Source of the DNA: Eledone cirrhosa
Lineage: Eukaryota
DNA: 64,000 nt
Direction of reading: 5' to 3'
Assembly (NCBI GenBank): GCA_964016885.1
Contig: OZ024747.1
Span: forward strand, 48,794,001-48,858,000
Under the pieces are notes generated by a model. That model worked only from the letters and a program-made list of their open reading frames with translations. It did not search any database and was not told the origin of the DNA. How positions within the stretch are numbered: the first letter of the stretch is position 1; every line of letters starts with the position of its first letter. Below, one piece after another: positions 2,955 to 62,648 of this stretch. The position numbers and the translations under genes were made by a program.

Positions 2955-3050
<96 letters not shown>

Positions 3051-3058
3051 GTGCGTGC

Positions 3059-3113
<55 letters not shown>

Positions 3114-3439
3114 TACATATATATGTGTATAAATATATATTTAATTAAATTTCTATGTATCTCTCTCTCTCTCTCAAATTCTCTATTTTAATTCCTGTCC
3201 TCAGTAATGTGACTTGTATAACAGGTAGTTTCAGGTATAAATGACATTTATTAGACTCGGTAATGTTGGTGTAAATGGCGTTGTCATGAGTTACATAAGG
3301 AGTGTGTCATGCCAGATGGGATGTGAAGTGTTTCTTATTTCCTCTTAAGATTACATTATTGTGAGATTTTGTATTTCGTGTAACAATTCACTTCAAAGTG
3401 TGTAAAAAAAAAAAAAAAAAAAAAGGAAAAAAGCTTGTG

Positions 3440-3740
3440 GCTATATACTAAATTATTTGAAGTTGAGGTTTGTTGAATCTTTTATAAACAAACAACTTTC
3501 ATTGTGTTTACTGCATCACAAGAGATTTTCTAATGAAGCAATGAAACGTAGACATTTGTGATAACATCTTACTAACCAGTATTCAAAGATAAACCAATTC
3601 ATGAAGATAAACCCGCTGAAATACTCTATAAAGAATTTCAAACTTGTTCTGCGATGGATGATGCATCCTTAAAAATTCAAAATGCTTTGAACAAGGGTTA
3701 ATTATCTGCAGCAGTTTATCTTATATTACATTGAATCGTC
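3440..3740 (+). pseudogene. Degraded hAT (Charlie/SCAND3-like) transposase N-terminal BED-finger remnant
   Basis: Translates LRFVESFINKQLSLCLLHHKRFSNEAMK..HL, resembling CLLC..FSNEAMKPSRL..HL; contains stops. Confidence 0.5.
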
Positions 3741-5031: not shown

Positions 5032-5103
<72 letters not shown>

Positions 5104-5107
<4 letters not shown>

Positions 5108-5310
5108 AAGTATGACCCCGACGGCAGAGCTCAAGCCGTTTCGACGGCTATTTCTGGACTAAAGTGACTTTAGTCCAGAAATAGCCGCCGAAACGGCTTG
5201 AGCTCTACCGTCGGGGTCATACTTTCTCCTATTACCCACTCTACTACCCTAAGTATTGAGTGCTCTGGTGCGTTATCGTCCATCTGGTTCTTTACCACAA
5301 CTCCTTCGTT
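5104..5310 (+). mobile_element. Fold-back mini-element family B (GACCCC family), copy 1
   Basis: ~60-bp arms gagaaagtatgacccc...ggggtcatactttctc, ~80-bp tail ending ttcgtt, TA flanks. Confidence 0.85.
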
Positions 5311-5325
5311 ATATATATATATATA

Positions 5326-9407
<4,082 letters not shown>

Positions 9408-9432: not shown

Positions 9433-9466
<34 letters not shown>

Positions 9467-9657
9467 GGAGAAAGTATGACCCCGACGACAGAGCTCAAGC
9501 CGTTTCGACGGCTGTTTCAGTCCAGAAATAGCCGTCGAAACGGCTTGAGCTCTGCCGTCGGGGTCATACTTTCTCCTATTACCAACTCTACTACCCCAAG
9601 TATTGAGTACTCTGGTGCGTTATGGTCCATCTGGTTCCTTACCACGACTCCTTCGTT
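9467..9657 (+). mobile_element. Family B copy 3
   Basis: Hairpin plus tail as at 5104; TA flanks. Confidence 0.85.
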
Positions 9658-9689
9658 ATATATATCACAATTCATACATCTCAATTCTA

Positions 9690-16451: not shown

Positions 16452-16812
16452 AAAATAAAGTTAAATAAAAGTCAAATGATTAAAATTTAGCTTCGTTTAT
16501 TACTGCTATATATATTTCAGTGACAGCCATCTTTAGCTGTGACCTCTTCAGGCAGTTTGAATTAGTATGGTATATACAAGTACATATGTTGTTTAGGTGT
16601 ATAATATTATCAATACTCTGATATGCCCAGTTCCTTGCTGGGTTGTTGATTCACTGAGGAACTGGAGTCATATCATATGTACTTGTCTATACCATACTAA
16701 TTCAAACTGCCTGAAGAGGTCACAGCCAAAGATGGCTGTCACTGAAATATATATAGCAGTAATAAACGAAGCTAAACTTTAATCATTTGACTTTTATTTA
16801 ACTTTATTTTAT
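16452..16812. mobile_element. Fold-back insert: ~137-bp inverted arms, each with an intact hammerhead
   Basis: Arms 16452-16588 and 16675-16812. Confidence 0.85.
16706..16760 (+). ncRNA. Type I hammerhead (mirror 16502-16556 on -)
   Basis: actgc CTGAAGA ggtcacagccaaagatggctgtcact GAAA tatata TA gcagt. Confidence 0.85.
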
Positions 16813-16834
16813 GTATATATATATATATATATAT

Positions 16835-17423
16835 ATAAAATATTAAAAAAATAATGAATAAACAATGAAACAGTTCCTTATATTAAACAAAAAAAGTTCA
16901 TTATTTAACGATCGTTTCTAGGATATATATGTGTTAGAATTGGCATGCATATTCAACAGATCTATGTACAAAATTATACAAAATTATACAAACTATCAAA
17001 ATTAAATATACATACCAACACATATATATGCCGTCTTCAGAAATAATTTTCAGAAATATTTCAGAAATATTTCAGAAATATTATTTCTGAAGACGGCATA
17101 TATATGTGTTGGTATGTATATTTAATTTTGATAGTTTGTATAATTTTGTATAATTTTGTACATAGATCTGTTGAATATGCATGCCAATTCTAACACATAT
17201 ATATCCTAGAAACGATCGTTAAATAATGAACTTTTTTTGTTTAATATAAGGAACTGTTTCATTGTTTATTCATTATTTTTTTAATATTTTATCTTGACTC
17301 TGTATTCCGTTTATCTTTCACCGAAAGTGATTTTTCATTGCATCTCTTCTTTCCATGATATCCGGATTACATTGAGTTCTTCATACGGATTGGACACTAC
17401 CGTAAACTCTTGGTAGATTTATC

Positions 17424-17426
<3 letters not shown>
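16835..17426 (+). mobile_element. Fold-back element family C: ~213-bp arms plus 3' tail
   Basis: Arms 16835-17048 and 17080-17291 joined by three stutters of tttcagaaata; relatives at 31609 and 61794. Confidence 0.9.
17080..17227 (+). ncRNA. Hammerhead with ~115-nt stem II (mirror in the left arm)
   Basis: attattt CTGAAGA cggcatatatatgtgttgg...ctaacacatatatatccta GAAA cgatcg TT aaataat. Confidence 0.75.
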
Positions 17427-17477
<51 letters not shown>

Positions 17478-17580
17478 GATGTTTGAGAATACAAAAATTA
17501 ACACATGCATATCTATACATGCATACATGCATACATATATATATACATATATACTTATAAACATATATATATACACACTT

Positions 17581-19498: not shown

Positions 19499-19958
19499 TG
19501 TATTAATTTTTGTATTCTCAAATATCCAAATCCGACAAAATGTTTGCTCACTAGACTCTGCAAGTAACCTGACAGAAGTAGTGAAAGTTGCATAAATATG
19601 TTCATATCATTTTTCCCAATGCAATCACTGTTAACATTTTACATTTTACATGTTACATTTTACATTTTACATTTTACATTTTATATTTTACATTTTACAT
19701 TTCTCTTACATCCTAATGTAACATGGCTAAATTTCAAATTTTAAAAAGAGAAGAAAACTGCCAAATGAATAAGATACATTTCACTTCCCCCGCCACTACA
19801 ATAACGTCTATACACTCTCCTCACCACCACATTTACACTTTTACACTCACACAAGTCAATACACAACCTATCTAGACGAAAGTCACTGAGCTGCTACCTT
19901 CCTCCCTACTTTGTGTTGAATATGTATGTGTGTATATATATCTATCTATATATATATA

Positions 19959-20158
19959 GGAGTAAGTAAGACCCCGACGGCTGAGCTCAAGCCGTTTCGA
20001 CGGCTAATTCTGTACTAATTCTGTACAGAATTAGCCGTCGAAACGGCTTGAGCTCAGCCGTTGGGGTCTTACTTACTCCTATTACCCACTCTACTACCCT
20101 AAGTATTGAGTACTTTGGTGCGTTATGGTCCACCTGGTTCCTTACCACTTTTCCCTCG

Positions 20159-20160
<2 letters not shown>
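19959..20160 (+). mobile_element. Family B copy 4
   Basis: Hairpin with duplicated centre ctaattctgta x2. Confidence 0.85.
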
Positions 20161-20222
<62 letters not shown>

Positions 20223-21437: not shown

Positions 21438-21495
<58 letters not shown>

Positions 21496-30395: not shown

Positions 30396-31573
30396 GAAAG
30401 TAGTGGGCAACTGATTGTGATGGTAATGGTAGTAGTAAGGATGGTACGGATAGTGGAACTCGTTTTATATTTCCGGGTTTGAATCTTCCAGCTTCAATCA
30501 CTTCAATCACAAGTTGAAATAAATGAAATCGCAATCTAAAGACACTCCAATGAATCTCTGGAACGAAAAAAAAAAAAAAAAAAAAACGAAATATTTTGGT
30601 TTGATCTCTTCCCGCCTAAATAAATACACTTTAACTTCTCTCTCGGTCGGAATCTCCAGAATGTGACATTTTCCAAGCTATGATTCCCATAAATTTTCTT
30701 TTCTAAACACTCACTCACATAAAACAAAACAGATTCCAGCTTAAATTCCACAAGCAATCATTCTGTTTTGATGATTTACCACTATTCAACATGGATGTCT
30801 ATATTGCTGGTTTGTCGTCTGGACGTCTAGCTACACGTGGATTTAAACTCTTTGAAATCTCTGGAATTTTCCTCAGTTGATATAATTGGTTGAGGGTAGT
30901 GATGGTGGTAGTGGTGGTGGTGATGGTAGTGGTGCTGGTGGCGGTGGTGGTGGTGGTTGTTGTAGTGATGTTGGTGAGGTTGGTGTGGAGGTTGGTGAGG
31001 GGCTGGTAAGGGGTTGGTCGAGATAATAATAATAAGGATGTTGATGTTAGTGGGATTAATGTTGCAAATAGTAACATTAGTATTTATGAGTGTTGTTATT
31101 GTTGTTTAGTCCACAGATCAGCAATGGATCAAACATATTTATAATAAAAGGCATTCCTTCCATGACCTAAGTATTTTGTTTTCAAACATATGACTACCTA
31201 GATATACTAAGACAACCAACCTATGTTTGGCGGTGGTGGTTATGGTGGTGGTCGTGGTGATGATGGTTGTGGTGGTGTTAATGGTGGGGTTAGAGGTGAT
31301 GGGAGTGATGGTGGTTGTGATGGTGGCGGTGGGTGGTGGTGTGTGTGTGTGTGGGGGGGGGGGGTACAACATATAGAGGTTTGCCACGATAACCTATTGC
31401 GGAAGGTCTTCGTTTTTCTATATTGCTGCTGTTTCTGTTGTTTCTGTACCAGCTTTGTTTGACGTTGTAATTGTGGGTTGATGTACACACACAGACAAAA
31501 GAACAATTTTTTTTATATATCTATGTATATACGTATATACATACACACATACATACATACATAAACACATGTG

Positions 31574-31608
<35 letters not shown>

Positions 31609-31614
<6 letters not shown>

Positions 31615-31908
31615 TATTAAAAAAATAATGAATAAACAAAGAAACAGTTCCTTATATTAAAAAAAATTTCATTATTTTACGATCGTTTCTAGGATATACA
31701 TGTGTTAGAGTTGGTATGCATATTCTATAGATCTATGTACAATATTTATACAAACTATCAGAGGGAATATACATACCTACACATATGTATGCTGTCTTCA
31801 GAAATAATGTAGTAGTTTTTGAATGCATCTTCTCTTTTCATGATATCCGGAATACATTAAGTTCTTCATACGGATTGGACACTACCGTAAACTTTTGGTA
31901 GATTTTTC

Positions 31909-31909
<1 letters not shown>
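31609..31909. mobile_element. Family C insert: inverted HHR arm (31670-31809, -) joined to a non-overlapping 3' tail
   Basis: Matches 16835-17048, then 17340-17426. Confidence 0.8.
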
Positions 31910-31991
<82 letters not shown>

Positions 31992-32267
31992 TGCCCAGGA
32001 AAACTCTTTCCTTTGAGCTCATTTAATTACAGGATTATACGCGAGTCTTTTGCTCCGTTATTTTTTTTTACTTGATATTTGCTCCTTGCTCTCTCTCTCT
32101 CTGCTGTTGAGCACCATAAATTGAATAGTATAGGCTGCCATTTCTAGCAGCTTGTCCTGTTCATGCCACCGGTTACTGCCTCGCGCACGCATTTCCCTTA
32201 TGTCTACACGTGCGACAGCTAGTTTACTTTAGTTCCCTCTAGTAGTGCGGACAATATCGGCCTTCCA

Positions 32268-32325
32268 CAAGCTGATGACCCACACGGCCGAATTGGAATC
32301 CACTTAAATGGCGAAATATTCTCCT
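32268..32325 (+). ncRNA. Degenerate hammerhead
   Basis: ag CTGATGA ccca...tggc GAAA ta TT ct. Confidence 0.5.
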
Positions 32326-32522
32326 GGTGAGTTTGTACATGTGTGACTTAGATATGAGGTTGGTTTCTCATTTTAATTTATACTTTTAATTTTAATGTGT
32401 TTCCTATGCCTCTAGTAGCTTATATTCTCTTCACGCTGGTGGTTTGAAATTCCTGTAAAGAAAAACACACTCTCCTGTGTCTTTCCCTTCTATATATTGT
32501 ATATATATATATATATATATAT

Positions 32523-32585
32523 ATAACAAAGGAGTCCAGAAATAGCCGTCGAAACGGCTTGAGCTCGGCCGTCCGGGTCATACTT

Positions 32586-32589
<4 letters not shown>
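32523..32589 (+). mobile_element. Family B minimal copy: ~11 nt of the 3' end inverted, then the short arm
   Basis: ataacaaagga (reverse complement of the terminus) + gtccagaaatagccgtcgaaacggc...catactt. Confidence 0.7.
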
Positions 32590-32659
<70 letters not shown>

Positions 32660-32662
32660 AAG

Positions 32663-32693
<31 letters not shown>

Positions 32694-33492
32694 ATATACA
32701 TATATTTCTTTGTACGCTGAGATGCAACCGGTACTAGCAGTGAAACCCATACTAGTTTCGTCAACCTATTATTAGTATTTTCTCCCAACTAGCAGATTAA
32801 CAGTGAGAGTAAGTTGAACGAGGTTCCACACTTTTTTTTAATTGTCTTTTGTTTAATATGCGCTCTAATAAATGTTAAATCTTTATCTCTCACACTCACC
32901 TATTGAATTGTTCAAGTGTGAAATTAATCGGTTTACGCACGTGGTTGGTTGAAATATCTAGAATTTGAATTCTAACCAGCGCACTAACTCTATATCGATG
33001 TCTAATCGCCGATTGGCATTTAATGTCCGGAAAGGTTTTAGGCGCTACCATTGTTACAGTCGCACTATTTCTCGCATGGTACTTGGAGACTAGAGCCAAA
33101 TGCTTAGTTCCGCTCCAGCCATAAGCTCTCAGCCAACGTGTCTCAAAAACAAATTAACAAGCGAGTGAAATACGGTTATTAAAAAAATCAATTTCCTATC
33201 GCTGTTCCTATCGCTGTACAATAGAATGGCAGCATTCGGCTCCATATTTCGACCAACCACGTGCGTAACTGTTCAATGCACACAAATATATATATATTCT
33301 TGTTATAATAATTATCGTTATCAATATCCTGCATCGACATCCACCTCTGTACAAATATTCAAAACAATATGTCAAATTGTCAAGTGATAACAGAATTTCT
33401 AGAACAATTTGATGCACTGCAATGTATGTATGTATGTATATATCTATGTATGTATGTATGTATGTATGTATGTATGTATGTATGTATGTATG

Positions 33493-61793: not shown

Positions 61794-62321
61794 GTAGATA
61801 AATCTACCAAGAGTTTACGGTAGTGTCCAATCCGTATGAAGAACTCAATGTATTCCGGATATCATGGAAAGAAGAGATGTAATGAAAATCCAATTTCGGT
61901 GAAAGATAAACGGTATACAGAGTCAAGATAAAATATTAAACAAATAATGAACAAACAATTCCTTATATTAAACAAAAAAAGTTCACTATTTAACGATCGT
62001 TTCTAGGGCATATATGTGTTATAATTGGTATGCATATTTAACAGATCTATGTACAAAATTATACAAAATTATACAAATTATCAAGATTAAATATACATAC
62101 CTAACTCATATATACGCCGTCTTCAGAAATAATGAAGACGGCGTATATATGAGTTAGGTATGTATATTTAATCTTGATAATTTGTATAATTTTGTATAAT
62201 TTTGTACATAGATCTGTTAAATATGCATACCAATTATAACACATATATGCCCTAGAAACGATCGTTAAATAGTGAACTTTTTTTGTTTAATATAAGGAAT
62301 TGTTTGTTCATTATTTGTTTA

Positions 62322-62330
<9 letters not shown>
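61794..62330 (-). mobile_element. Family C fold-back centred at HHR stem I/core
   Basis: ...cttcagaaataa|tgaagacg...; HHR 61984-62132 (-). Confidence 0.85.
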
Positions 62331-62372
<42 letters not shown>

Positions 62373-62376
<4 letters not shown>

Positions 62377-62567
62377 GAGGAGTTGTGGTAAGGAACCTGA
62401 TGGACCATAACGCACCAGAGTACTCAATACTTAGACTTAGGGTAGTAGAGTGGGTAATAGGAGAAAGTATGACCCCGACGGCAGAGCCCAAGTCATTTCG
62501 ACGGCTATTTCAGTCCAGAAATAGCCGTCGAAACGGCTTGAGCTCTGCCGTCTGGGTCATACTTTCT

Positions 62568-62570
<3 letters not shown>
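62373..62570 (-). mobile_element. Family B copy 5
   Basis: Reverse orientation, same arm end-point. Confidence 0.85.

Positions 62571-62648
<78 letters not shown>

Follow-up and report, generated by a model that had tools for sequence, protein, structure and literature searches.

Probable separate priming of the two arms in short repeats derived from Penelope-like elements of Eledone cirrhosa

In a 64,000-nucleotide stretch of the Eledone cirrhosa genome (contig OZ024747.1, positions 48,794,001 to 48,858,000; hereafter the window), two repeat copies, at 31609 and 32523, combine an inverted short arm with a long-arm remnant which contains few or none of the same element positions. The two arms of these copies are probably the products of two separate priming events, one for each cut strand of the target; we would put this reading at roughly seven chances in ten. 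The evidence comes from the structure of the two copies, from a census of similar arm pairs in the genome and from the sequence variants carried by the arms.

Results

Repeat families in the window

The window is rich in (TA)n and contains three dispersed repeat families which are built alike: in each, an inverted short arm is separated by a short, variable centre from a long arm, the latter consisting of the short-arm repeat plus an extra stretch. Single genomic copies, rather than consensus sequences, were used as rulers, namely window positions 5166-5312 for family A (147 nt) and 17076-17426 for family B (351 nt). On these rulers the short arm covers approximately positions 5-67 of A and 5-217 of B, and the tail the remaining 80 nt (68-147) and 134 nt (218-351), respectively. 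In each head-to-head pair one arm runs to the 3' end of the element, while the other runs to a fixed internal site (67 in A, 217 in B). The outer ends of nearly all copies read, from all three families, adjoin (TA)n. By a very rough extrapolation from 1.66 Mb, the copy number would be about 10^5 for family A and 10^4 for family B. The copies of the window are reported in Table 1.

Table 1. Copies of the three families in the window, with position, strand and composition.
Feature	Position	Strand	Composition
Two adjacent full family A pairs	5100..5518	+	5100-5165 (-)/5166-5312 (+); 5323-5382 (-)/5382-5518 (+)
Full family A pair	9464..9659	+	
Full family B pair, reference	16835..17426	+	Short arm 16835-17050 (-), centre 17051-17075, long arm 17076-17426 (+)
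Full family A pair	19956..20162	+	
Family B short arm	31609..31812	-	Element positions 217 down to ~5, inner end complete
Family B long-arm remnant	31816..31911	+	B positions 256-351, distal 'tail' part; then (AT)n
Family A long-arm remnant	32525..32535	-	Last 10-11 nt of the element
Family A short arm	32533..32593	+	A positions 7-67, full; outer end adjoins (AT)n
Third-family copy, one-armed, 5'-truncated	51205..51443	-	Long arm with tail
Full family B pair	61794..62330	-	Long arm 61794-62133 (-), short arm 62133-62330 (+)
Full family A pair	62371..62572	-	Long arm 62371-62511 (-), short arm 62509-62572 (+)

The centre of the reference B pair contains a reiterated TTTCAGAAATA unit. Several Rfam microRNA models match the region around it (17003-17124), all of them below threshold, because of the long hairpin. 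A full copy of the third family, found at L068:8338-8892, consists of a 56-nt tail and a 499-nt near-perfect palindrome, 98.6% self-complementary; further copies of this family lie near window positions 21468, 36043 and 38002, and at L053:2080-2780.

Structure of the copies at 31609 and 32523

The first copy belongs to family B. Window positions 31609-31808/31812 are the reverse complement of B positions 5-217, with (TA)n adjoining the outer end and a hammerhead-like motif inside, whereas the remnant found on the other side of the junction corresponds to the last 96 nt of the long arm (256-351). The junction itself consists of three nucleotides, TAG (31813-31815), and the two arms have no element position in common. 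An earlier note on this stretch had stated that the inverted arm has no counterpart in the truncated long arm, and the alignment bears it out.

The second copy, of family A, was said to retain only about 11 nt of the 3' terminus, followed by the whole inverted short arm, and this description was also found to be correct. The 10-11 nt of the remnant differ from the reverse complement of the A terminus (ruler 5166-5312) by one mismatch, of CpG type, and the short arm covers positions 7-67; the remnant and the start of the short arm at 32533 have about 3 nt in common. By our own arithmetic, a given 10-mer with at most one mismatch is expected at a fixed place with a chance of about 3 per 100,000. 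The copy at 51205, which the same note had described as similar, is instead a single long arm of the third family, and no inverted short arm was found beside it.

Just upstream of the B copy, window positions 30873-31350 are occupied by an imperfect G/T-rich minisatellite (GGT/GTG units), arranged in two blocks with a poly-G end. Between the two copies, contigs and reads from other copies align to window positions 31990-32500 at 90-95%, with many differences, and this stretch is probably another, older repeat. Four of six listed sequencing runs (three low-depth contig sets of one sample and one RAD-seq run) were compared to window positions 31560-32700: the element positions were swamped by reads from other copies, and no record bridging a junction with unique flanks was found over this region in the four runs.

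Relation to Penelope-like elements

Families A and B most likely represent short derivatives of the 3' end of Penelope-like elements (PLEs). Positions 4-147 of A form the 3' end of a 1.7-kb copy located on contig C3 (L077:2117-3998), which makes family A the 3'-terminal part of something longer. This parent copy is 5'-truncated and its ORF (2984-3676, minus strand) encodes only the C-terminal part of a protein, with a GIY-YIG-type end; L116:1202-2188 likewise encodes a C-terminal part, and both ORFs contain VIY...YIGLT. The partner arm of the L077 copy contains A positions 5-67, ending at 67, joined to a 120-nt piece of the parent's 3' untranslated region, and the copy at L098:1917 is built in the same way. 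Family B extends into common upstream sequence at L171:7355, L190/L191, L041:8340 and L191:3149. A genome search with the internal part of L077 produced 3947 first-look candidates, 40 of which were scored; relative to most other copies among those scored, the L077 long copy has an internal deletion of about 370 nt.

Pfam searches on the local ORF pieces revealed no significant match and no reverse transcriptase (RT), and a GIY-YIG match on one paralogous copy (E = 0.002) fell below the cut-off. Similarly, no RT was recognisable in four 4-kb stretches upstream of long copies. Two longer protein relatives, P0001 (707 aa, 45% identity) and P0002 (666 aa, 42% identity), contain, by eye, RT-like motifs (FDV..FYPSI, GLYRDDGL) followed by the same C-terminal domain; the Pfam model RVT_1 matched neither of them. 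Their protein-atlas neighbours carry GIY-YIG, HTH_animal and DUF8422.

According to Craig et al. (2021, PMC8557442), the Hydra clade is marked by RWK, by DKT in place of DKG, by a CxCX5C linker and by an endonuclease without CCHH. RWK, DKT and CxCX5C are all found by eye in P0002 (RWK, ADKTS, CNCRVKTDC); P0001 has RWR, ADKTT and a CxCX6C linker, and the local copies include the C-terminal part only, with a decayed linker. On the basis of the RT-like motifs and of RWK, DKT and CxCX5C in these relatives, the parents of A and B were filed as Hydra-type PLEs, and they probably belong to this clade.

The same paper describes Hydra PLEs as short, present in aquatic invertebrates and nearly all inserted in (TA)n, and PLEs as having an inverted 5'-truncated copy and a tail which is often at one end only. 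Families A and B have in common with Hydra-clade PLEs the insertion in (TA)n, the inverted head-to-head copy, the tail at one end, the 5' truncation and the GIY-YIG-type end of the ORF. The unequal outer ends of the pairs correspond to this known tail; the earlier note had recognised neither the elements as PLEs nor these ends as a PLE tail. A tailed and a tail-less end are combined in 42 of the 44 classifiable head-to-head A pairs, and likewise in the L077 long copy. Families A and B differ from the Hydra PLEs described there in the length of the tails, which are 80, 134 and 56 nt in the three families against 30-40 bp, and in the fact that most copies are very short units, of 147 and 351 nt. 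In 1.66 Mb, the short copies of A and B included no head-to-tail partial tandems (pseudo-LTRs); pseudo-LTRs belong to full-length elements, and their absence in short copies is therefore no bar to the membership of the parents.

Census of arm pairs

An unselected sample of 1.664 Mb was surveyed, made up of the window and of the 10-kb stretches L031-L110 and L127-L206, corresponding to 400 kb flanking the window and 200 kb from each of the contigs C1-C6, other than C7. Thirty full pairs of family A were found by reading. In another 15 pairs a short arm which reaches position 12 or lower, and is thus complete, is combined with a truncated long arm, starting at 22, 29, 31, 36, 37, 41, 43, ~66, 66, 69, 71, 78, 88, 123 and 138. 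The reverse case, a truncated short arm with a full long arm, was found once, and the asymmetry of 15 against 1 is significant (binomial p = 0.0005). Both arms are truncated in two pairs, at the same junction, located on 5 nt of internal complementarity. Six solo short arms were also found, together with two short arms running into the parent element and one pair in which both ends lie at the internal site, with no tail on either side (L148:6393-6520). The latter is repeated about 640 nt away, at L148:7034-7160, with identical flanks, and represents a local duplication.

For family B, a search with window positions 31612-31911 detected 10 further loci, colinear with the query across the junction and provided with different flanks. 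At least eight different junctions are present among the resulting 11 non-overlapping loci, and several of these junctions show microhomology over 3-9 nt. Six of the 11 have a complete short arm, which ends instead at 18-20 in two and at 31-43 in three; the long arms start at 205-247, a range which is not a free sample, since the loci were picked by likeness to the query. A build like that of the copy at 32523 is present in family B at L051:1299-1411, in a copy with 99% identity to the reference: a short arm is joined to the final 10 nt of B, reiterated three times, a triplication found in no full copy read. The earlier note had proposed to compile overlaps and gaps over genomic copies; as carried out here, the compilation provided the 15 A pairs with a complete short arm and a truncated long arm, and the 11 B loci with non-overlapping arms.

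In both families the short arm has a fixed outer end. In A it lies at 67, although a variant subfamily can be aligned only to 53; in B it lies at about 217, and better TA-like stretches inside B are not used. Short arms extended into the parent element are four in all (L077 and L098:1917 for A, L171:7355 and L190/L191 for B). Taken together, these parent-extended arms, the solo short arms and the tail-less pair at L148:6393 indicate that the internal site is a real start point. Among the long-type A matches, 6 of 74 start within positions 61-70, which is no sharp pile-up, and a simple roadblock at the internal site is therefore weakly supported at best.

Priming of the short arm

Two-primer synthesis predicts a complete short arm regardless of the state of the long arm, whereas a snap-back, in which the long-arm cDNA folds on its own 3' end, predicts a short arm starting at the truncation point of the long one. 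Both arms start from the truncation point in only two pairs (L057:6476 and L089:947), which are about 80% identical to the reference. A snap-back cannot yield short arms with positions absent from the long arm, as found in 15 A pairs and at 11 B loci, nor solo short arms, nor arms of the L077 type, the inner end of which lies off the 5' end of the long arm; moreover, the fixed outer end at 67 or 217 would need a separate reason. The reading of the earlier note, that the short arm was made separately and not copied from the long-arm cDNA, is thus supported by the 15 to 1 ratio in family A, by the B loci, by the solo arms and by the short arms which run into the parent element.

The snap-back is not devoid of support as the main route, with the non-overlapping copies produced by some other, rare one. 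The centre most often seen in B is a perfect palindrome based on the palindromic 5' end of the element, the arms within a pair are near-identical, and short returns and zig-zag centres (L035:4668, L058:9743, L065:5601, L189:4061, L084, L136) show that strand switching takes place at the 5' end: in 4 of the 15 A pairs with truncated long arm, a hairpin turn is followed by 7-19 nt of return and then by a jump. The commonest B centre is, however, expected from either mechanism, because the 5' end of B is a short palindrome. The sequence of the majority class (the 30 full-overlap A pairs and 25 of 30 selected B loci) fits two-primer synthesis and snap-back alike. On balance, we consider it unlikely that the snap-back is the main route.

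A different explanation is that all pairs were born full and that part of one arm was removed later. Long palindromes are unstable, and the window copies at 31609 and 32533, being 86-91% identical to the reference copies, are not young. However, the loss is one-sided, affecting the long arm only in 15 A pairs, the short arm only in 1 and both in 2, and the short arm extends undamaged as far as the inner end which it has in full pairs. Neither could a deletion create the triplicated 10-nt terminus of L051:1299, a copy 99% identical to the reference, and at L183:4614-4760 the A short arm is separated from the last 25 nt of the long arm by 47 nt of unrelated filler. This filler may be a piece of another RNA, acquired by template switching. 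Random later deletion is therefore very unlikely to be the source of the non-overlapping copies.

A pair might also result from two independent insertions, of a solo short arm and of a 5'-truncated long arm, into adjacent places of one TA repeat. Solo copies of either kind do occur, and separate copies share a TA tract in the window (5312-5323, 62330-62371). In the non-overlapping pairs, however, the arms are 0-10 nt apart, always head-to-head and often with microhomology, and no TA repeat lies between them; in addition, both arms belong to the same subfamily in the four pairs, out of four, where this could be read in the first sample. Such a coincidence is highly improbable.

A script-based census of family A revealed 49 head-to-head pairs, of which 42 combine a long-type and a short-type end, two have two long-type ends, and five have an arm which is only partly aligned. 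The solo copies detected by the same script have 35 long-type and 15 short-type ends, the latter reduced to six by reading. One end of each kind is thus present in 42 of 44 pairs, against a fraction of 0.42 expected from free pairing of the solo ends (p = 5e-14).

Origin of the two arms of a pair

A good long arm was the sole criterion by which thirty B loci were selected. The short arm extends to the same internal site in 25 of them; four have none, and one has AT-rich filler at its centre. These copies are 97-100% alike, yet their centres differ, being either palindromes of varied length or reiterations of a 10-11-nt unit; centres also vary among the A copies. At a diagnostic site for B subfamilies, the two arms agree in 24 of 25 pairs, the exception being a CpG transition, and L008 has a private letter in both of its arms. 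In 26 full A pairs the identity of a short arm to its own long arm is 0.954, versus 0.889 to arms from other pairs; in 17 of the 26, no long arm matches better than the one within the pair, and a mean as high as that observed was not obtained in any of 20,000 permutations. Since the centres vary and the arms are alike in their variants, each pair is built anew at insertion, from one source.

Young copies had been suggested as a place to look for arms from different subfamilies, which would indicate two templates. The figures above do not reveal such mixtures in either family. Arms of the same subfamily exclude random pairs of RNAs, and are still compatible with two RNAs from one source. The B loci L018 (contig C587) and L022 (contig C3) have the same unusual reiterated centre and the same scores, and probably represent a segmental duplication or a single locus which was assembled twice.

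The same observations bear on a further possibility, namely that the whole foldback is mobile, either as a foldback/MITE-like DNA element or as an RNA containing both arms, and that variants such as that at 31609 are inherited. Ten other loci are indeed colinear with it across the junction, L210 and L213 have the same junction, and L208 and L215 a similar one. Against this, the 11 loci display at least eight junctions, centres differ among near-identical copies, copy-private variants such as that of L008 are present in both arms, and 4 of the 30 B loci, as well as many A copies, have a single arm, the 5' end of which is clean. Foldback and MITE DNA transposons, characterised by inherited terminal inverted repeats and by target-site duplications, are also unlike these families, in which centres vary and arms are unequal; target duplications are unreadable inside (TA)n. 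We judge a mobile foldback extremely improbable.

The hammerhead-like motif of family B

The inverted arm at 31609 had been described as carrying a hammerhead ribozyme. Family B does contain a type I hammerhead-like motif, defined in the reference copy by CUGAAGA (17087-17093) and GAAAC (17209-17213), with a helix I of 7-8 bp and a helix III of one pair closed by a palindromic GAUC loop. Helix I includes a pair which is C-G in one subfamily and U-G in another. Helix II, about 110 nt long, is devoid of the usual G10.1-C11.1 pair, which is stressed for hammerheads by Cervera and de la Pena (2014, PMC4209133). Rfam detected no hammerhead in the window at the gathering threshold, or in 16700-17500 with E up to 10. 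The motif is therefore only hammerhead-like: it has the core letters, a helix I and the minimal helix III, but neither the G10.1-C11.1 pair nor an Rfam match. No hammerhead-like features were seen by eye in family A or in the 160 nt upstream of it, while PMC8557442 reports a canonical hammerhead ribozyme as universal in the Hydra clade.

The predicted cut falls between 17220 and 17221, i.e. at B position 145, 72 nt before the internal start site; this predicted layout resembles the published one. The B arms meet at positions 1-5, away from the predicted cut.

In being short and non-coding, with a hammerhead-like type I motif, a minimal helix III and a palindromic loop, family B is similar to the non-LTR retrozymes (PMC7229834; bioRxiv 10.64898/2026.07.22.740005). 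Like them, A and B probably depend on PLE proteins. The retrozymes are reported to be tandem, non-autonomous and hammerhead-bearing; A and B copies are, in contrast, dispersed, two-armed and located in (TA)n, and no tandem arrays of them were seen.

Discussion

The sequence of events which we propose for the copies at 31609 and 32523 is the following. The endonuclease of the element would cut both strands of the target. One of the resulting 3'-OH ends would prime at the distal start site, giving the long arm, while synthesis primed by the other at the internal start site would reach the 5' end of the RNA and produce the short arm. The ends of the two cDNAs would then pair via a few bases, each being extended on the other, and this would generate the variable and sometimes zig-zag centres. 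An early stop of the first cDNA would leave arms with partial overlap or none, as in these two copies. In full pairs two rounds of copying would be needed for the common stretch, with strand displacement on a single RNA or with two sister RNAs as templates.

Biochemical data on PLEs are in agreement with this two-primer reading. A purified lizard PLE protein cuts and elongates the target's top strand as well as its bottom strand, and reverse transcription starts from two internal sites of the RNA without homology to the target, the stretch between them corresponding to the tail (Frangieh et al. 2024, PMC11167929). In the same work the protein prefers AT-rich DNA, is predicted to form a dimer and does not require hammerhead cleavage; the study stops short of second-strand synthesis. 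Both start sites are used there, in vitro, on both strands without preference, and the near-strict rule of one start site of each kind, observed here, differs from that behaviour and is not predicted by that work. PLE integration is called undefined in PMC8557442. The two-armed, tailed architecture had already been described; the present data add the complete short arms beside truncated long arms, the near-strict one-of-each rule, the variants common to both arms and the longer tails.

The 5' inversions of human LINE-1 were reportedly attributed to twin priming by Ostertag and Kazazian in 2001. The second primer of L1 can anneal at any place where a few bases are common to target and RNA. The copies described here resemble the products of L1 twin priming in having a direct 3' segment, an inverted upstream segment, a small gap or overlap and microhomology at the join, and the likeness is very close in the B loci without overlap, where the long arm starts at 205-247 and the short arm ends at about 217. 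They differ in that the second start is at one fixed site, in that most pairs overlap by the whole short arm, and in the reverse transcriptase, which is of a different class and associated with a GIY-YIG nuclease. No paper naming twin priming for PLEs was found in the literature searched, the scope of which did not extend to older subscription papers.

More tentatively, each insertion might be a single concerted event, in which a dimeric PLE particle primes both start sites of one RNA at once, a possibility to which we attach less than even odds. The distal site would be used on one cut strand and the internal site on the other, and the second cDNA would serve as primer and template for the completion of both strands.

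Two-armed copies resemble hairpins and might be mistaken for microRNA genes in genome annotation, where masking them as PLE fragments is advisable. The junctions of A and B are natural records of integration and place testable constraints on models of PLE integration: the short arm is made alone, one start site of each kind is almost always used, and the arms come from the same source. If insertion were indeed one concerted event, this would explain the presence of the tail at one end, and would provide PLEs with a built-in mechanism for second-strand synthesis, which is absent from LINEs.
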